Shown here in pieces: positions 1-7,858 of a stretch of 7,858 bases of DNA (positions within the stretch are counted from its first letter, which is position 1; each line of letters begins with the position of its first letter). This stretch comes from a virus (taxonomy: Duplodnaviria > Heunggongvirae > Uroviricota > Caudoviricetes): IMG/VR virus record IMGVR_UViG_2850808358_000013, positions 1 to 7,858 of that record. One strand, given 5' to 3'. The notes under the pieces are model-generated. The model had not been told where the DNA came from, did not search any database, and saw nothing but the letters and a program-made list of their open reading frames with translations. The translations under genes and the position numbers were made by a program.

Positions 1-939
1 TTATTTGATTTCAATTTTGTCCCACTCCCTGCCTCTGTCATCACGATACTGTGATGCCATGGTGTCCGACTTGTGCCCGAGAAGATGTTGAGCAAACTTA
101 TCGCTTATCTGCTTCTCATAGAGTCTTGCAGACAAACTGCGCAACTCGTGAAAGGTAGGTGGATCCCCTTCGAAGGAAAGACCTGATGCTTTTCGTGCGC
201 GCATAAAATACCTTGATACTGTGCCGGATGAAAGCGGTTCACGACGAGTAGATGCAATTATGGTTTCTCCGCCAAGAATCTCTTTGCATTTATCAAGTGT
301 TTCCTTCATTGATATCCCGAGAGCATCAACATGCAATGTTGTAGGGATGGCAATTTTTACGCCTGTTTTGCTTTGCTCGACATAAAGATATCCATCTACG
401 ATATCAGACCACTTCATTTCGCATAAATCACCAACTCGTTGCCCGGTAACAACAGCCAGTTCCATTGCAAGTCTGAGCCAACATGGTGATGATTCTGCTG
501 CTTGATAAATTTTCAGGTATTCGTCAGCCGTAAGTCTTGATCTCCTTACCTCTGATTTTGCTGCGCGAGTGGCAGCGACCGGGTTTGTTGTTATATGGCC
601 TTCAGCTATTGCCTCTCGGAATGCATCGCTCAGTGTTGATCTGATTAACTTGGCTGATGCCGCCTTGCCCTCGTCTATGTATCCATTGAGCATTGCCGCA
701 ATTTCTTTTGTGGTGATGTCTTCAAGTGGAGCATCAGGCAGCCCCCTCCTTATTGCTTTAATTTTGCTCATGTAATTTATGAGTGTCTTCTGCTTGATTC
801 CTCTGCTGGCGAGGATTTTTTCGTAGCGAGCAAGCCATGAATGTAACGTAACAGAATTATCACTGTTGATTCTCGCTGTCAGAGGCTTGTGTTTGTGTCC
901 TGAAAATAACTCAATGTTGGCCTGTATAGCTTCAGTGAT
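1..939 (-). pseudogene. int: Lambda-type tyrosine integrase (Int), 5'-truncated remnant; the longest ATG-initiated ORF is 1..771
   Basis: Minus-strand translation ends ...HLLGHKSDTMASQYRDDRGREWDKIEIK with the stop at 1-3, which I recognise as the C-terminus of phage lambda Int; the catalytic signatures HELR, LLGH and SQY are present. My manual translation upstream of the M at 771 continues in frame (..ITEAIQANIELFSGHKHKPLTARINSDNSVTLHSWLARYEKILASRGIKQKTLINYMSKI..) up to 939, where the frame enters the IS terminus and meets a stop (955-957). About 37 N-terminal codons and the start codon are missing. Confidence 0.9.
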
Positions 940-1003: not shown

Positions 1004-1306
1004 ATGAGCAGAAAAACCCAACGTTACTCTAAAGAGTTCAAAGCTGAAGCTGTCAGAACGGTTCTTGAAAATCAACTTTCGATCAGTGAAGGCGCTTCCC
1101 GATTATCCCTTCCTGAAGGCACTTTAGGACAATGGGTTACCGCCGCCAGAAAAGGGCTCGGTACTCCTGGTTCCCGCACGGTGGCTGAACTGGAATCTGA
1201 AATTCTGCAACTGCGTAAGGCGTTAAATGAAGCTCGCCTTGAGCGAGATATATTAAAAAAAGCAACAGCGTATTTTGCACAGGAGTCGCTGAAAAATACG
1301 CGTTAA
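1004..1306 (+). CDS. IS3-family transposase OrfA (helix-turn-helix plus leucine-zipper-like C-terminus)
   Basis: 100-aa ORF with AGGAG 6 nt upstream of the ATG; the product ends ..ERDILKKATAYFAQESLK, typical of IS3-family OrfA; the slippery run lies near its 3' end. Confidence 0.9.
   Translation: MSRKTQRYSKEFKAEAVRTVLENQLSISEGASRLSLPEGTLGQWVTAARKGLGTPGSRTVAELESEILQLRKALNEARLERDILKKATAYFAQESLKNTR
1255..1261 (+). other. Programmed -1 ribosomal frameshift site (A AAA AAA followed by G) generating the OrfAB fusion transposase
   Basis: The heptamer aaaaaaa + g at 1255-1262 sits in the orfA frame as tta-aaa-aaa-gca; the orfB frame (the frame of the ATG at 1342) is exactly -1 relative to orfA. This is the known IS3-family mechanism (established for IS911 and IS3). 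Confidence 0.6.
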
Positions 1307-1341
1307 TCGAACAATGGCGACAACAATTTCCCATTGAAGCG

Positions 1342-2160
1342 ATGTGTCAGGTATTTGGTGTATCCAGGAGCGGTTATTACAACTGGGTACAGCATGAACC
1401 CTCAGACAGAAAACAAAGTGATGAGCGGCTAAAACTGGAGATTAAGGTGGCACATATCCGCACTCGCGAAACATATGGAACCCGGCGGCTCCAGACGGAG
1501 CTGGCAGAGAATGGCATCATCGTTGGTCGTGACCGACTGGCACGTCTTCGTAAGGAGCTAAGGCTACGCTGTAAGCAGAAACGCAAGTTCAGAGCGACTA
1601 CGAACCCGAACCACAATCTGCCAGTTGCGCCAAATCTGCTGAACCAGACGTTCGCTCCTACAGCACCAAATCAGGTCTGGGTGGCGGACCTGACGTATGT
1701 TGCCACACAGGAGGGATGGTTGTACCTCGCTGGCATCAAAGATGTTTATACGTGCGAAATTGTCGGCTACGCCATGGGAGAGCGCATGACAAAAGAGCTG
1801 ACAGGTAAAGCCCTGTTTATGGCGCTCAGGAGCCAGCGCCCACCTGCCGGGCTAATCCACCACTCTGATCGAGGTTCACAGTACTGCGCATACGATTACC
1901 GGGTCATACAGGAGCAGTTTGGTCTGAAAACATCAATGTCGCGTAAAGGTAACTGTTACGACAACGCTCCGATGGAAAGCTTCTGGGGAACGCTGAAAAA
2001 TGAGAGCCTGAGCCACTATCGTTTTAATAACCGGGATGAAGCCATCTCAGTAATACGGGAATACATTGAGATTTTCTACAATCGTCAGCGTCGTCACTCT
2101 CGTCTGGGGAATATCTCCCCGGCAGCCTTCAGGGAAAAATATCATCAGATGGCTGCTTAA
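1342..2160 (+). CDS. IS3-family transposase OrfB (DDE / retroviral-integrase-like catalytic core)
   Basis: 272-aa ORF containing DDE motif elements (..VWVADLTYV.., ..HHSDRGSQY.., ..NAPMESFWGTLKNE..); it lies in the -1 frame relative to orfA. Confidence 0.9.
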   Translation: MCQVFGVSRSGYYNWVQHEPSDRKQSDERLKLEIKVAHIRTRETYGTRRLQTELAENGIIVGRDRLARLRKELRLRCKQKRKFRATTNPNHNLPVAPNLLNQTFAPTAPNQVWVADLTYVATQEGWLYLAGIKDVYTCEIVGYAMGERMTKELTGKALFMALRSQRPPAGLIHHSDRGSQYCAYDYRVIQEQFGLKTSMSRKGNCYDNAPMESFWGTLKNESLSHYRFNNRDEAISVIREYIEIFYNRQRRHSRLGNISPAAFREKYHQMAA

Positions 2161-2203: not shown

Positions 2204-2283
2204 TTCAGTTAATGCCTCGCAGAAAAAGCGCTCCTGCTGCTTAACAAATTCAACGATATCGAACATTTTTTTGGTCCTGAAAA

Positions 2284-2565
2284 TCAGAAAGGACAGGGGG
2301 AGAATTTTCTCTCCCATTCTTCTTCCGCCCGAGCATAGGCGATCGCTGAGATATAATCGTTGTACGCCTCTTCAGCTTTTTCGCCAGTGAGTGCCAGTTG
2401 GGCTTCTTTGGGTAAAAAAAGGCTGCTCATAAGCAATGGTTTATCGGGGAACATGCTGATAAGCTCCTGCGCCCGATCATCAATCCATTTATCCTTTTCA
2501 TCCTGAATATGCTGATTAACCCAGCGACGCTCCTCTATGCGGTCGCAGGTGAGGTATGCGTTCAT
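2284..2565 (-). CDS. Hypothetical small acidic protein (93 aa), last gene of the Rha operon
   Basis: ORF with AGGAG 9 nt upstream of the ATG (reverse complement of 2566-2580); its start is 20 nt after the stop of the upstream ORF. By my count 19 D/E versus 12 K/R. No family recognised. Confidence 0.55.
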   Translation of the reverse strand: MNAYLTCDRIEERRWVNQHIQDEKDKWIDDRAQELISMFPDKPLLMSSLFLPKEAQLALTGEKAEEAYNDYISAIAYARAEEEWERKFSPCPF

Positions 2566-2585
2566 GGCGGAACTCCTGATTCCGG

Positions 2586-2867
2586 TTAATGCATTAAATT
2601 AATTTGTCGGGAAAGCTGACAGACAGGGCAGTTACATTCTTCCTCCTGCTCTTTAGCGAAGAAATATGCAGCGGCCTGTAATGCGATGTCTTCTGGATGT
2701 TCCGCGATAAACATAACATTGCCTTCCGTATCAATAACAGAAATAGCCTCATCAGGCAGGACGACAAAATAGGCGATGATTTTATCATCCATAAAAACTT
2801 CTCCCATTATCGTTTCTGCTGGCGTTATGACGTTTTTTACATTGATATTAATTTTTTGATTGAGCAT
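2586..2867 (-). CDS. Hypothetical small, strongly acidic protein (93 aa) with a C-terminal C-x-C-x-x-C motif
   Basis: ORF with AAGGA about 7 nt upstream of the ATG; its start is 11 nt after the stop of the upstream ORF. About 15 D/E versus 5 K/R; ends ..EECNCPVCQLSRQINLMH. No family recognised. Confidence 0.55.
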   Translation of the reverse strand: MLNQKININVKNVITPAETIMGEVFMDDKIIAYFVVLPDEAISVIDTEGNVMFIAEHPEDIALQAAAYFFAKEQEEECNCPVCQLSRQINLMH

Positions 2868-2878
2868 GATATTTCCTT

Positions 2879-3091
2879 TCAGGCTGGTGAGATTAACGGT
2901 TGGCCTTTATGGTTCAGGTAAACTTCGATTGCATCTGAAATAATGCGGATTTTTTCAATCAGTGAATGTGCGTAAAGTGCATTATTAACGTTAGCTGACG
3001 CCATGTAATAACGCCCGTTGTAAAGAATTGCTGTACCGGGTTTAACGTCCTCGCGAGAAACTAATGCGGTTCCGTAGTGAGGTTTGAGCAT
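2879..3091 (-). CDS. Hypothetical small protein (70 aa)
   Basis: ORF with a strong GGAGG 7 nt upstream of the ATG (reverse complement of 3092-3110: ccGGAGGatttgtcATG). Same strand and tight spacing with the neighbouring genes. Confidence 0.55.
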   Translation of the reverse strand: MLKPHYGTALVSREDVKPGTAILYNGRYYMASANVNNALYAHSLIEKIRIISDAIEVYLNHKGQPLISPA

Positions 3092-3130
3092 GACAAATCC
3101 TCCGGTTAATTAATCCAGATATTTAATTTA

Positions 3131-3153
3131 ATCCCCGATATGTGATCGGGGAT
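3131..3153 (-). other. Perfect 9-bp inverted repeat (hairpin) between the Rha gene and the 70-aa ORF
   Basis: atccccgat-atgtg-atcggggat; on the minus-strand mRNA it is followed by an A/U-rich stretch (UAAAUUAAAUAU) rather than a clean U-tract. Confidence 0.4.
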
Positions 3154-3161
3154 GGGGTTAA

Positions 3162-3800
3162 TTAAAGATTAACGTTGAAACCAAAGCGGGAAGACTTTTC
3201 CGATGTGCGGGAAATATCCAGCAATTTACGGCGCATTTCTTCCGTCAGATGCTTGAAGGCGTTAAATTCGGCGACAGCCGCATCGACGTTATAGCCGTTA
3301 CGACGTAATTCATTAAATATGCGCATTGCAGGGCTTGGCATGTCGAATAAGACGGAGGTATCAAGCTGCAATGTATTTCTATCAACATAGTTCATCGTGG
3401 CATAGGGGTGATGCTCTGAAAACCACGATAAAGGGAAATTGATATTCATCGCAGGAGAAGACAGGGCCAGTTGTTTCTGTTCCCATAGTTGTTTTTCCAT
3501 GCGATCGAATTCAGCAATGTAGGCTTCCTTGAATGCAGCTGCTTTTTTGCCGGTGAAGCCCATCACCAGAAAAACGAAGCCGTTTTTGGTGATTTGGTAG
3601 GCGTTATAGGTATTGCCTCGGTGTTCGAATTTAACCCGCGAAAAGTTGCGGGTTAAGAATTGCTCAGAGCATTCGAGGGATTCTATTTTCTGAACAACAT
3701 GGTGATGCTGCTTGCCAAAAAACTCAGCAATCGAAATAGAAGTAGTGACGGCGCGACCATTTTCGATGGTTACGTCAGGGTGAGAAAGGGTAGTAGCCAT
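3162..3800 (-). CDS. rha: Rha-family phage regulatory protein (pRha domain; antirepressor-like)
   Basis: N-terminus MATTLSHPDVTIENGRAVTTSISIAEFFGKQHHHVVQKIESL...YQITKNGFVFLVMGFTGKKAAAFKEAYIAEFDRME matches the pRha N-terminal domain as I remember it. Start chosen at ATG 3800 (GAGGA 7 nt upstream) rather than the track's 3959; the 53-codon in-frame extension is GC-rich and low-complexity. Confidence 0.8.
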   Translation of the reverse strand: MATTLSHPDVTIENGRAVTTSISIAEFFGKQHHHVVQKIESLECSEQFLTRNFSRVKFEHRGNTYNAYQITKNGFVFLVMGFTGKKAAAFKEAYIAEFDRMEKQLWEQKQLALSSPAMNINFPLSWFSEHHPYATMNYVDRNTLQLDTSVLFDMPSPAMRIFNELRRNGYNVDAAVAEFNAFKHLTEEMRRKLLDISRTSEKSSRFGFNVNL

Positions 3801-3830
3801 AATGACATCCTCAAGTGATAAGTTAATTAA

Positions 3831-3937
3831 CTCACCACCAGAGGTGCTAATCTCATGGGTGGTGAGACGCACAGGGTTAGCACTACCGGTCACTCGAGAA
3901 CCCGGCCAGCCTTGCGGCTGCCCCGCACGCCTCACCA
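3831..3937 (-). promoter_or_regulatory. Structured 5' leader of rha with three copies of a complementary motif allowing alternative hairpins
   Basis: Plus-strand ctcaccacc (3831-3839) and ggtggtgag (3858-3866) form a perfect 9-bp stem; a third copy ctcacca (3931-3937) can alternatively pair with the middle element. cagcc-ttgc-ggctg (3907-3920) is a GCAA (GNRA) tetraloop hairpin on the minus-strand RNA. Confidence 0.4.
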
Positions 3938-3961
3938 TAATTTGAATGTGGCTGTGCATTA

Positions 3962-4043
3962 CGCATAAAAAAACCGCTTCAGCGCGGTTATGCGCTCGAG
4001 TAACTTTCGGGGTGCTAATCCCGGCACCCGTTTTATGAGGTGT
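3962..4043 (-). ncRNA. Putative small RNA (about 80 nt) between a promoter-like motif and an intrinsic terminator; hypothetical
   Basis: Minus-strand -35 TTGACT (4078-4073), 17-nt spacer, -10 TATATT (4055-4050). The predicted transcript 5'-ACACCUCAUAAAACGGGUGCCGGGAUUAGCACCCCGAAAGUUACUCGAGCGCAUAACCGCGCUGAAGCGGUUUUUUU contains a 6-bp GC hairpin (4010-4029) and the terminator hairpin; no plausible ORF. Confidence 0.25.
3967..3989 (-). terminator. Rho-independent terminator acting on minus-strand transcripts
   Basis: Minus-strand RNA AACCGC-GCUGAA-GCGGUU followed by a U-run (plus-strand A-run 3967-3973); the stem is short, so moderate strength; preceded by a second hairpin. Confidence 0.45.
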
Positions 4044-4049
4044 TCGCCA

Positions 4050-4078
4050 AATATAGCCCCGACATCACACGCAGTCAA
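4050..4078 (-). promoter_or_regulatory. Sigma70-like promoter candidate P2 (TTGACT-17-TATATT) on the minus strand
   Basis: Hexamers read directly from the reverse complement; shares the 11-mer TATTGACTGCG with P1. Confidence 0.3.
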
Positions 4079-4383
4079 TATCGTCCTTTCTCGGAAATGC
4101 TTTGGCGGTGCCGCCTGCACCCAAAACATTCCCTGTATTGGTCAGCGCCAACTTCCTGCCAGTGTTGCCCGTTCTCACGCCGTTCTCGCTCTCGCGCGGG
4201 GATACTCTCTCATCGACCGGATCGCACCCGATGATACAGCACGTTTACGTGTAGGGGTCTAAACAGGTCATTGACGCTGTAAAGCTCCAGATTGTTAAAG
4301 AGCATTTTGCGGCGGGTTAAGTCGCGCCGTACGACTGATTTATGTAGCCCTGTGTCAGGGCGCGATGTTTCTGGCTTGGGTAA

Positions 4384-4413
4384 AATATAATAAGTGCAAC
4401 TGATCGCAGTCAA
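4384..4413 (-). promoter_or_regulatory. Sigma70-like promoter candidate P1 (TTGACT-18-TATATT) on the minus strand
   Basis: Reverse complement of agtcaa (4408-4413) and aatata (4384-4389); sits in an AT-rich block; the same TATTGACTGCG 11-mer as P2, about 335 bp upstream of it. Confidence 0.25.
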
Positions 4414-4641
4414 TAGCAAGACTAATAATTTAATTTTAATCTATGTGATTGATTTTTAGATTAATTTATTTATGTAAAAAATATAAGCGAGGATAATGCA
4501 GGTGGTGAGTTATGGAGGATGCGCAAAGAAAAAACGGCGCTGAGGCCGGTTACTCTGTGTTAGATTTGGTGTGAGGGAACCCCTGATAACACTAAGAAAA
4601 GCAGTGAACAGTCAAAGAGAACCCAGCGGGCTTGGTGGCTT

Positions 4642-4670
4642 TTGACAAAAACATCGCCTGTAACTATAAT
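4642..4670 (+). promoter_or_regulatory. Consensus sigma70 promoter for the hicAB-like operon (TTGACA-17-TATAAT)
   Basis: ttgaca at 4642-4647, 17-nt spacer, tataat at 4665-4670. The palindrome aacta-taat-tagtt overlaps the -10 and is a candidate autoregulatory operator. Confidence 0.6.
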
Positions 4671-4699
4671 TAGTTGCAATGTAGCGAAGATGAGATTAT

Positions 4700-4954
4700 G
4701 TGGGTATGGGGAAAGCAGATAAGCTACTGGAAAAGTTTTTAAACAGTAAAAAAACGTTTGAATGGGATGAGTTGGTCGTTTTGTTTTCCTCTCTGGGATA
4801 TGTCAAAAAGGAAATGCAGGGCTCAAGAGTGCGGTTTTTCAATGCTGAAATCAACCACACCATATTAATGCATCGCCCACATCCAGAAAGTTATATTAAA
4901 GGTGGAACGCTGAAAGCGATTAAACAGAATCTGAAAGAGGCTGGGGTATTATGA
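4700..4954 (+). CDS. hicA: HicA-family toxin-like protein (YcfA/HicA fold, putative mRNA interferase); initiation may be at ATG 4706
   Basis: ..KADKLLEKFLNSKKTFEWDELVVLFSSLGY..QGSRVRFFNAEINHTILMHRPHPESYIKGGTLKAIKQNLKEAGVL fits the HicA pattern as I remember it; the stop overlaps the next start (ATGA at 4951-4954). The track start is GTG 4700. Confidence 0.7.
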   Translation: MGMGKADKLLEKFLNSKKTFEWDELVVLFSSLGYVKKEMQGSRVRFFNAEINHTILMHRPHPESYIKGGTLKAIKQNLKEAGVL

Positions 4955-5295
4955 ATCATCTAAAATATAAAGGATATTTAGGTACAGTAGAACCAGATTT
5001 TGAAAATAATATCCTGTACGGAAAACTGGCGTTTATTCGAGACCTGGTAACTTATGAGGCTTCTACATTAGCTGAACTGGAACAGGAGTTTAAGACATCG
5101 GTTGAGCTGTATTTACAGTCTTGTGTGGAGGATGGAAAGGAGCCTGATACCCCGTTTAAAGGTGTGTTTAACGTCAGACTTGATCCAGAACTGCATCGTC
5201 GGGTCGCTGAAATGGCGATGGAAGAAGATTTATCACTGAACGCCTTTGTTAATAAGGCGCTGGAAAAAGAAGTCAACCATCACACAGGGGCTTAA
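4951..5295 (+). CDS. hicB: HicB-family antitoxin-like protein with a C-terminal ribbon-helix-helix DNA-binding domain
   Basis: N-terminal YKGYLGTVEPDFENNILYGKLAFIRDL..EEPDTPF resembles HicB N-domains; C-terminal KGVFNVRLDPELHRRVAEMAMEEDLSLNAFVNKALEKEV is RHH-like; 4-bp overlap with hicA. Confidence 0.7.
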   Translation: MNHLKYKGYLGTVEPDFENNILYGKLAFIRDLVTYEASTLAELEQEFKTSVELYLQSCVEDGKEPDTPFKGVFNVRLDPELHRRVAEMAMEEDLSLNAFVNKALEKEVNHHTGA

Positions 5296-5382
5296 TGTTC
5301 CCTTCGTCTTTGACATCCTCACCGCCGAAGAATGGGGAATTTACGGCGCACTGGTAAATGGTGGGGCGAGCAGGAGGCAAAC

Positions 5383-5408
5383 AAAACCCGGCACCAAGGC
5401 CGGGTTTT
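5383..5408. terminator. Bidirectional Rho-independent terminator between the convergent hicAB-like operon and the repressor operon
   Basis: aaaacccggc-accaag-gccgggtttt: a perfect 10-bp stem with a 6-bp GC core and a 6-nt loop, with an A-run upstream and TTTTGTT downstream, so a U-tract follows on both strands. Confidence 0.6.
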
Positions 5409-5409
5409 G

Positions 5410-5580
5410 TTATTGGTGCATTTGGCAGGTTGTAATATCTGGTCCATAAGCCAAAGTAAAAACAGGCTTGTTGATCAAGCCCATGTTCTTTAATGATTGA
5501 ATCATTTTTCCTTGCTCGCTAACTTTTTGCTTGCTAAGTATTTCTTCCACTTGTTGTGTCAAGGATTTGTCTTTGTTCAT
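5410..5580 (-). CDS. Unlisted 56-codon ORF between the repressor gene and the terminator; hypothetical
   Basis: Manual translation of the minus strand gives MNKDKSLTQQVEEILSKQKVSEQGKMIQSLKNMGLINKPVFTLAYGPDITTCQMHQ; the stop lies 2 nt from the terminator stem; only a weak GTGAG Shine-Dalgarno. Below the ORF-track length cutoff. Confidence 0.3.
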   Translation of the reverse strand: MNKDKSLTQQVEEILSKQKVSEQGKMIQSLKNMGLINKPVFTLAYGPDITTCQMHQ

Positions 5581-5701
5581 TTATGGCTCACTTGATTGCG
5601 ACTGCTCCCCGCCCGCATTGGGCGAGGGTTCTCGGAGATTTTTCGCTGAAAAAGGAAATAAAATAGCCTCCCTGCAAGGTTATTGATATCATCCTGTGAG
5701 T

Positions 5702-6421
5702 TCAATCAAAAGTCTCATCATTCCACTGCGACTTTATGACCTTTCCGACAAACGGGCAGTTTTCGTTACACTCAATCATGTCGAATCGTGGGTTGAGTGG
5801 CTCCAGGTACGCTTTACCGCTCTCACGAATGAATCGTTTGAAGGTGAATTCATCGCCATTCATTCGGGCCACGCAAAAATCGCCATCCTCAATCTCCCGC
5901 TCAGGGTCAACGAGTATCAGCATCCCTTCGGGGAAACTGGGTTTACCACCCTGCGGCGCGGTCATTGAATGCCCCTTGACCTCCAGCCAGAACGACCTGT
6001 CACTGGCTTTTGTGGTGGTGGAGATCCACTTAATCGCATCCTTTGCGGTGTACGAAAAATCATCCATTGAGAAAGCTCCAGCCTGTACGCAGGAGAGTAA
6101 CGGATATTCGTAATATTTCTCGAACAGGTTACGCCTGTTTCCCGGTGTGTGGGTACGAATACTGCGTAACAAATCACTCAGATCTGGATTAATTTCTTCC
6201 GCAGGAACCTGTAATAAAGCCGCAAACTTAAGGGTATTTTCAGTATTTAACGCAATTTTTGCGTTCAATAACTGACTAACAGCCCCCTGCGTTTTGAAGC
6301 CGAGGATATCTGCGGCTTTTTCCTGGCTTAGGGATAGCTGTTTCCGTTTTTCATCCCAGATTTTGCGCAGTCGTTCAGCGTTCTGGATGTCTTTGTCAGT
6401 AATTGTAATTTTCTTCGTCAT
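5702..6421 (-). CDS. cI: Lambda cI-like prophage repressor (N-terminal HTH, C-terminal LexA/S24 autopeptidase domain)
   Basis: The C-terminal half is nearly colinear with lambda cI as I recall it (..[16 protein letters not shown].., ..[30 protein letters not shown].., ..[13 protein letters not shown].., ..[14 protein letters not shown]); Ala-Gly cleavage site, Ser (GHSM) and Lys (FKRF) all present. Start set at ATG 6421 (GGAGG 4 nt upstream) rather than the track's 6460. Confidence 0.9.
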
Positions 6422-6472
6422 AGTGCCTCCAATTTTATTAGCAACACAAATATTTATCAAATAGCTGGCCTG

Positions 6473-6500
6473 TTGACATTTAAATCAGGTAAGCTAATAT
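6473..6500 (+). promoter_or_regulatory. pR-like sigma70 promoter for the cro-like gene (TTGACA-16-TAATAT) in the divergent repressor/cro intergenic region
   Basis: ttgaca at 6473-6478 and taatat at 6495-6500; GGGAGG 6 nt before the ATG at 6527; the palindrome atttaaat lies in the spacer. The leftward repressor promoter and the operators were not resolved. Confidence 0.5.
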
Positions 6501-6526
6501 CGGAAAATTGAAATGGGAGGATCTCT

Positions 6527-6766
6527 ATGACTCTTGACGAGTACTTGAGACAAAGCTCTATCAGACAAGCCGATTTTGCGGCGATTGTTGGAGTTTCTCA
6601 GGGATTTGTCAGTGGGGTTATTACAGGGAGATACATGCCTCAGGGGCGGAAAGCCATTGAATGGGCAAAAGCTACAGACTGGAATGTAACTCCCCATGAA
6701 CTAAACCCGCATGACTACCTAAACATGGAAGATGGTATTCCGCTTCATGTAAGGCAAACAGCCTGA
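6527..6766 (+). CDS. Cro / YdaS-like small HTH regulator (79 aa)
   Basis: Divergent from the repressor gene with a strong SD; ..IRQADFAAIVGVSQGFVSGVITGRYMPQGRKAIEWAKATDWNVTPHELNPHDY fits the Cro/YdaS-type HTH pattern as I remember it. Confidence 0.7.
   Translation: MTLDEYLRQSSIRQADFAAIVGVSQGFVSGVITGRYMPQGRKAIEWAKATDWNVTPHELNPHDYLNMEDGIPLHVRQTA

Positions 6767-7483: not shown

Positions 7484-7858
<375 letters not shown>

Follow-up and report, generated by a model that had tools for sequence, protein, structure and literature searches.

The window, by which we mean the whole 7,858-nucleotide stretch of DNA analyzed here, carries on its minus strand a 56-codon open reading frame (ORF) that extends from an ATG to a TAA codon. 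By ORF scan and translation, its product is MNKDKSLTQQVEEILSKQKVSEQGKMIQSLKNMGLINKPVFTLAYGPDITTCQMHQ. The ORF lies just 3′ of a co-oriented gene for a cI-type repressor, as an earlier note on this DNA had described, and a spacer of 121 nt separates it from the cI stop codon. The repressor matches Peptidase_S24 (E=6e-28) and HTH_3 (E=3.5e-7) in Pfam as well as the transcriptional repressors of PHROG 4, and carries the RefSeq name "LexA family protein". A consensus scan of positions 5200-6600 identified a PRM-like site upstream of cI as the sole promoter-like site on the minus strand upstream of the small ORF, and found none in the gap between the two genes. The shared orientation and the gap free of promoter-like sites uphold the earlier claim that the ORF is placed for co-transcription with cI.

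Downstream, the ORF runs into a bidirectional intrinsic terminator formed by a perfect 13-nt inverted repeat (5380-5392/5399-5411; AACAAAACCCGGC/GCCGGGTTTTGTT), with a U-run 3′ on both strands. The outer stem reaches two bases into the stop codon, and the G+C core begins 5 nt past it; the earlier note, which had the ORF end 2 nt before the terminator stem, was essentially right. On the other side of the terminator, the convergent hicAB genes match HicA_toxin (E=1.2e-11) and HicB (E=7.4e-20) in Pfam. We also agree with the previous description of the ribosome-binding site as weak: the best anti-SD duplex within the 20 nt 5′ of the ATG has an energy of -3.9 kcal/mol, whereas the values for three other genes of the window (cI, the cro-like gene, and kil) are -9 to -10 kcal/mol.

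The spacer contains a further minus-strand ORF of 42 codons (5577-5705). Its TTG start overlaps the cI stop codon (GATTGA) and its TGA overlaps the ATG of the small ORF (ATGA), an arrangement that could in principle chain-couple translation of cI to that of the small ORF. By chance alone, a frame this long would be open in ~13% of cases.

Elsewhere in the window, the prophage is degraded. The 3′ part of an integrase gene occupies 1-771 (minus strand), an IS3-family element (orfA, orfB) lies at 1004-2160 (plus strand) where related prophages have exo and recT, collinearity with these prophages resumes at 2204, and an IS911-like orfA begins at 7520 (7520-7858, plus strand). Two minus-strand segments score above the Rfam gathering threshold, 3855-3942 as C4 antisense RNA (78.6 bits) and 3967-4043 as isrK (61.6 bits). 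The two occupy the region immediately 5′ of a Rha/Ash-type antirepressor ORF (3162-3959), overlapping its 5′ end, and together with it resemble a P1 immI-like or Gifsy isrK-like antirepressor control unit.

Table 1. Features at and around the small ORF, in window coordinates.
Feature	Coordinates	Strand	Basis or remark
Small partner protein gene of SDH-type ClpP-fold proteases, apparently orphaned here	5410..5580	-	RefSeq WP_164834428.1; PHROG 28875
cI-type repressor gene, 239 aa, HTH_3 + Peptidase_S24	5702..6421	-	Upstream gene of the presumed transcript
PRM-like sigma-70 promoter match upstream of cI, TTGATA-17-TAAAAT	6432..6460	-	Consensus match only
Bidirectional intrinsic terminator of the cI/small-ORF unit (-) and convergent hicAB (+)	5380..5411	.	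Inverted repeat, A/T runs
hicA-hicB toxin-antitoxin pair, convergent with the small ORF	4706..5295	+	Pfam, RefSeq; context, outside the module
Apparent 3′-end remnant of a deleted SDH protease gene, 13 nt, AGT GAG CCA TAA then ATG	5581..5593	-	Homology ends exactly here
74-nt filler in place of 1293 nt of L010, with G+C-rich stem-loop 5607-5628	5594..5667	.	L010 alignment

Conservation of the small ORF

Comparative data indicate that the small ORF is a real, conserved protein-coding gene. It is already known to the extent of being annotated as a hypothetical protein and catalogued in PHROGs. The identical RefSeq product is found at the equivalent place in 3 complete E. coli genomes, and residues 1-53 match PHROG 28875 (E=1e-30; 56-position profile), to which no function is assigned there. 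The ORF belongs to a block (5374-5593) that recurs in other E. coli prophages at ~90% nucleotide identity and in a different setting. Compared with these relatives, the frame contains no indels and differs by 6 synonymous and 7 non-synonymous changes (pS 0.19, pN 0.05), and dN/dS between close pairs is 0.21-0.31. The test of conservation and codon substitution pattern proposed in the earlier note therefore came out in favor of a coding sequence. Two plus-strand ORFs that overlap the small ORF (5332-5493 and 5246-5449) were dismissed because their starts fall outside the conserved block.

More distant relatives, gathered by exhaustive HMMER search, profile search, and inspection of loci, share 33-55% identity with the small protein and are found in Plesiomonas, Klebsiella, Enterobacter, Cronobacter, Citrobacter, Pectobacterium, and Shewanella. 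At this distance synonymous sites are saturated and pN is 0.4-0.5. A profile search with the family recovered 21 clusters. The relatives are mostly 55-63 aa long, with a few called products of up to 75 aa, and have in common the motif Q..MI.DLK..GL[IL]N.P.F.LAYGP. The small protein of the window displays the general pattern of the family, whose members span 55-86 aa: a helix at the N terminus precedes the motif G-[LIV]-x-x-x-P-x-[FY]-x-L, and GLINKPVFTLAYGP forms the conserved tail segment. Searches of Pfam, NCBIfam, and PADLOC yielded no match above threshold, and sequence and fold searches of the PDB gave no meaningful match. A resemblance to the N-terminal part of ArgR was rejected: the scores of 16.6 and 17.2 bits are sub-threshold (the cut-off for the 16.6-bit match is 27) and the AF2 model is a single helix.

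The earlier note had left it equally likely that the ORF is non-coding. We reject this assessment on the basis of the PHROG and RefSeq matches, the dN/dS values, and homologs reaching down to 33% identity. The ORF could in theory be a chance frame in the 3′ UTR of cI, or the region could act as an RNA, for example a terminator or sRNA. The weak ribosome-binding site would fit such a reading, as would a terminator-like hairpin with a U-run inside the ORF (5462-5484, minus strand; AUGGGCUUGAUCAACAAGCCUGU UUUUACUUUG) and the finding that the whole region folds better than shuffled sequences (z=-4.25). However, the folding score is dominated by the terminator and by the hairpin of the filler, and no Rfam family matches within 5380-5700. 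Moreover, a synonymous GGC to GGA change in protease-bearing relatives breaks one pair of the internal hairpin, which argues for constraint on the protein rather than on the RNA. Amino-acid conservation at ~33% identity, with synonymous sites saturated and length held constant, would be difficult to reconcile with a chance frame. We consider this alternative to have a negligible probability, the comparative data having to all appearances effectively refuted it already.

Pairing with an SDH-type protease gene

The small ORF is carried by 20 of 5426 complete E. coli genomes. In 17 of the 20 it abuts, at the sequence TAAATG, a gene for a 300-aa "SDH family Clp fold serine proteinase", which itself comes after a prophage repressor gene; the other three genomes have an orphan small ORF in an arrangement like that of the window. 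The protease family corresponds to PF01972 and PHROG 11747, and a PF01972 protease is encoded at the relative loci L002, L003, L006, L008, and L010. The gene order repressor-protease-small gene is kept around small-protein homologs of 55% and 48% identity and around protease homologs in Klebsiella and Enterobacter prophages, and a protease/small-gene pair flanked by housekeeping genes is found in Shewanella. Within the E. coli clade, TAAATG couples translation of the small gene to that of the protease gene and compensates for the weak ribosome-binding site; more distant homologs have good GGAG-type sites instead.

We then analyzed species-representative protease loci, taking the best 80 of 401 confirmed matches (L038-L117). 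They derive from many phyla, including Bacteroidota, Acidobacteriota, Gemmatimonadota, Spirochaetota, and Elusimicrobiota. All 80 have an ORF of 55-86 aa after the protease gene, with a start between -38 and +127 nt from the protease stop codon and, in all but one, within 35 nt of it. An HMM iterated solely on the 410 nt around the protease stop picked up a same-strand homolog of the small protein at 65 of the 80 loci; control searches returned 0/80 upstream, 1/80 farther downstream, and 0/80 in antisense. At the other 15 loci, an ORF of 62-86 aa starts -38 to +22 nt from the protease stop, and most of these share the tail Y-x-[LF]-P-x-x-D-T-I-G. The tail motif reads GL[IL]N.P.F.LAYGP in Enterobacterales and G.I..P.Y.LP..DTIG in other phyla. 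That the small ORF never varies in its placement or strand with respect to the protease gene is a further argument against a chance frame or an RNA. Natural fusions of protease and partner were not found; the longer homologs have N-terminal or internal extensions.

The surroundings of the pair are diverse. Among 137 nearest neighbors there are 188 Pfam families, none of which occurs in more than 4, and many of the neighbors are housekeeping enzymes. Such unrelated neighbors indicate that the pair is a self-contained, mobile two-gene unit without a third conserved component. The SDH-type proteases of E. coli prophages are ~50% identical to those of Bacteroidota, Acidobacteriota, and Elusimicrobiota, and this identity across phyla, together with the unrelated housekeeping neighbors, suggests frequent horizontal transfer of the unit. 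TBLASTN, another check that the earlier note had named, came back empty for the small protein in 50,697 phage records, and the protease had two remote matches only in the same records, indicating that the pair is rare in isolated phages.

Evidence for loss of the protease gene

A PF01972 protein is encoded nowhere in the window, and the small gene there lacks the position directly 3′ of a co-oriented PF01972 gene that characterizes its family. With only 13 nt of a protease gene left, it would be a member of the family by descent whose context has been lost. The closest intact relative, L010, is a prophage of E. coli 2015C-3121. It shares the hicAB and Rha/kil/gamL backbone of the window and has the order cI, a 53-aa membrane-protein gene, protease gene, small gene, terminator. 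The terminator is kept along with the small ORF in protease-bearing prophages. In the alignment, window 2204-5593 corresponds to L010 1833-5214 and window 5668-6113 to L010 6508-6953, such that 74 nt of the window (5594-5667) replace 1293 nt of L010. Homology breaks off within the end of the protease gene, which in protease-bearing prophages reads ...AGT GAG TCA TAA ATG. That the junction falls within the protease gene favors loss of the protease over its gain.

The alignment indicates that a single event removed both the protease gene and the 53-aa membrane-protein gene from the window lineage. In an ancestor of the window, the exchange of 1293 nt for 74 nt would have eliminated these two genes while sparing the small gene, together with 13 nt from the 3′ end of the protease gene and the shared terminator. 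With the protease gene deleted, the TAAATG translational coupling of the small gene would be lost as well. The remnant (5581-5593) holds the sole SD-like bases (GUGA) available to the small ORF.

The 53-aa gene of L010 (6284-6445; NZ_CP027340.1) is annotated as encoding a "transmembrane anchored protein" and lies between cI and the protease gene. It was absent from the other protease-bearing prophages examined, and its product has no NCBIfam match.

Most of the filler consists of a ~50-nt G+C-rich stem-loop element (5600-5650) of the form CCCCGCCCG-CATT-GGGCGAGGG then TTCTCGG.G.TTTTTCGCTGA. Copies with 92-96% identity occur at more than 100 loci on E. coli plasmids. In each case examined, the element directly follows the 3′ end of a co-oriented gene, and these genes are unrelated: one of the MarR family, the yacB toxin gene, and, in the window, cI. 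No Rfam family matches the element. Because the stem-loop has no U-run on the minus strand, termination of the cI transcript at this point is not expected. Farther downstream, the hairpin inside the small ORF might attenuate read-through in the orphan.

A possible role for the small protein in the intact pair

The AF2 model of the small protein (pLDDT 82.7) comprises a helix at residues 7-32 (pLDDT >90) and the conserved tail in extended form. The helix is single, long, and amphipathic, and the protein as a whole is hydrophilic. The AF2 model of the protease is confident (pLDDT 91, pTM 0.88) and most closely resembles B. subtilis SppA, followed by ClpP, at TM-scores of about 0.4-0.5. Candidates for the Ser, Asp, and His residues are conserved: in the numbering of the L003 protease, Ser101, which lies in an AMSAGT motif, and His237 are invariant in the family, and Asp143 and Asp169 are invariant or near-invariant.

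We propose that the small protein is a cytoplasmic partner of ~56 aa that would be obligate for an "SDH family" (Ser-Asp-His) ClpP-fold serine protease. In lambdoid and other Enterobacterales prophages the pair is inserted directly 3′ of the repressor gene, a site at which a lysogen would express both genes from the repressor promoter. The combination of a helix and a conserved linear motif, encoded in obligate tandem, suggests a protease-docking regulator, a pseudo-substrate, or a dedicated substrate. The asymmetry between the two genes, in which the protease never occurs alone (80/80 loci) and the partner is tolerated alone, favors a neutralizing or regulatory role over that of an effector. 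Acting as a regulator or pseudo-substrate, in the manner of an antitoxin-like inhibitor, the helix and conserved tail may bind to the protease, and such a role would explain why the protease is never found without its partner and why the partner can survive without the protease. Inhibition is one of several roles that fit obligate pairing, and we advance the idea of an antitoxin-like inhibitor tentatively, at somewhat short of an even chance.

Alternatively, the small protein could be the dedicated substrate or pro-effector of the protease, cut at the conserved tail (for example, upon phage infection) to release an active fragment. On this model, the orphan would be an inert precursor left uncleaved, and the pair would resemble NfeD cutting its operon partner stomatin. 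Such a relationship accommodates the obligate pairing, the strong conservation of a linear motif within the extended tail, and the tolerance of the orphan. The weak NfeD1b_N match of the protease points in the same direction, as does its closest solved fold, SppA, which was crystallized with peptide termini in its active sites. However, a hydrophilic 56-aa protein with a single helix has no recognizable effector domain, and the inhibitor model fits the present data equally. We regard a substrate role as rather unlikely.

It is also conceivable, though in our judgment highly improbable, that the SDH protease and a ~60-aa pseudo-substrate inhibitor constitute a widespread toxin-antitoxin-like or abortive-infection module, with the orphan kept as a stand-alone anti-protease immunity factor that is co-expressed with cI and protects the lysogen or prophage against SDH-protease modules on competing elements.

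Spread and fate of the orphan gene

The identical small protein is indexed in 1192 assembly blocks and, among the places listed, 8/8 have cI, a 121-nt gap, the small ORF, and convergent hicBA. So widespread an orphan arrangement implies that the small protein alone is not harmful. The arrangement was found with two repressor alleles, and the block made up of hicAB, terminator, ORF, and spacer is 98-100% identical in all orphan copies. Orphan variants, looked up among called, intact products only and hence in a biased sample, carry I36N, an in-frame 15-nt deletion, or synonymous changes, and always keep the frame. Seen against the near-identity of the block and the bias of the sample, these frame-keeping variants are compatible with continued function.

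To judge from its sequence context, the orphan in the window is most likely a poorly expressed, harmless remnant. Poor expression would follow from the loss of TAAATG coupling combined with the weak ribosome-binding site, and persistence from the location of the gene, which has cI on one side and, on the other, a terminator required by both cI and hicAB. The orphan can still be co-transcribed with cI.

This last property would also serve a gene retained for a function of its own, either as an immunity factor directed against the SDH proteases of competing elements or as a small exclusion or regulatory factor, since it could be expressed with cI in the lysogen. The wide distribution of the arrangement, its association with two different repressor alleles, and the intact reading frame of every variant seen are in keeping with such a function. 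However, the orphan occurs in one lineage only and its block is nearly identical everywhere, so that persistence may reflect mere recent spread, and an ORF lodged between cI and a shared terminator may simply hitch-hike. Neither the weak ribosome-binding site with its lost coupling nor the accidental-looking junction inside the protease gene speaks for a selected function, and we think an independent role improbable. By contrast, we consider it likely that the explanation as a whole is correct, namely that the ORF genuinely encodes the small partner of a protease, was orphaned by deletion, and probably persists as a remnant.

These findings modify the earlier suggestion of an exclusion or regulatory factor. 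The part concerning location stands, in that the cassette repeatedly fills the exclusion slot downstream of cI; the idea of a free-standing factor does not, since elsewhere the gene is the second of a protease pair. We view the short ORF as the stranded half of a two-gene cassette and not as a new miniature exclusion factor. Of more use is the wider by-product of the analysis, that a gene for a small helix-plus-motif protein follows the gene of an SDH-type ClpP-fold protease in essentially every case. This pairing extends from E. coli prophages to Bacteroidota and Acidobacteria, and in Enterobacterales it is repeatedly found in the exclusion slot 3′ of cI. It offers a testable handle on a protease-based module, for which the natural orphan provides a control without protease.

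Comparison with known systems

A system named FS_HP_SDH_sah was reportedly described from phage-inducible chromosomal islands by Fillol-Salom et al. in Cell in 2022. It resembles the intact pair in combining a PF01972 ClpP-like SDH protease with an uncharacterized "HP" on mobile elements of Enterobacterales. The window differs in having the small gene only, without the required SDH_sah (PF01972) gene. FS_HP_SDH_sah exists as a DefenseFinder system that includes the SDH_sah gene (PMC13532340). Compared by system name and SDH_sah gene alone, the intact pair may correspond to this system, and the small gene in the window is probably a degenerate instance of a cassette already listed as a defense system. 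Text searches of the literature for SDH_sah turned up one use of the name, and PADLOC v2 contains no matching model for the small protein or the protease. The "Tai" tail-assembly-inhibition systems were considered as a possible SDH system and rejected, as the Tai paper mentions neither a protease nor SDH.

Two characterized proteases of the ClpP fold are encoded beside a partner. B. subtilis SppA has an operon-encoded inhibitor, SppI/YteJ. SppA is the nearest solved fold to the protease described here (3rst, 4kwb; Foldseek E=5e-6 to 1e-4), and in both cases the gene of a ClpP-fold serine protease lies beside that of a dedicated regulator; the active sites of 4kwb hold peptide termini. However, identity to the protease is ~16% and TM-scores are 0.38-0.54. 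SppA is membrane-bound and uses a Ser-Lys dyad, whereas the protease here has a triad in the order Ser-Asp-His. Similarly, SppI is a membrane protein and the partner here is a hydrophilic 56-aa helix with a tail. NfeD, a ClpP-like protease, and stomatin are encoded in operons, and NfeD binds and cleaves stomatin. The protease has a weak Pfam match to NfeD1b_N (E=1e-6, below cut-off), but its partner does not belong to the SPFH/stomatin proteins, is one-fifth of the size, and lacks a membrane segment.

The exclusion genes 3′ of cI include rexAB in lambda, sieB in P22, and stk in 933W. The pair occupies the same slot in the same orientation, 3′ of cI and before the terminator, with expression alongside the repressor in the lysogen, and this slot holds interchangeable cassettes. 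Searches of Pfam, PHROG, NCBIfam, and PADLOC revealed no homology of the small protein to RexA, RexB, SieB, or other exclusion proteins, and we know of no exclusion phenotype for the small gene.

Finally, the pair can be compared with type II toxin-antitoxin systems. The small protein differs from their antitoxins in having no DNA-binding fold (HTH, RHH, or AbrB), its AF2 model being a single helix. The likeness lies in a compact, mobile two-gene unit with unrelated neighbors, in which the larger enzyme is never alone and the small partner survives. By this analogy, the orphan pattern would fit, as indirect evidence, a protease that is toxic and neutralized by its small partner.
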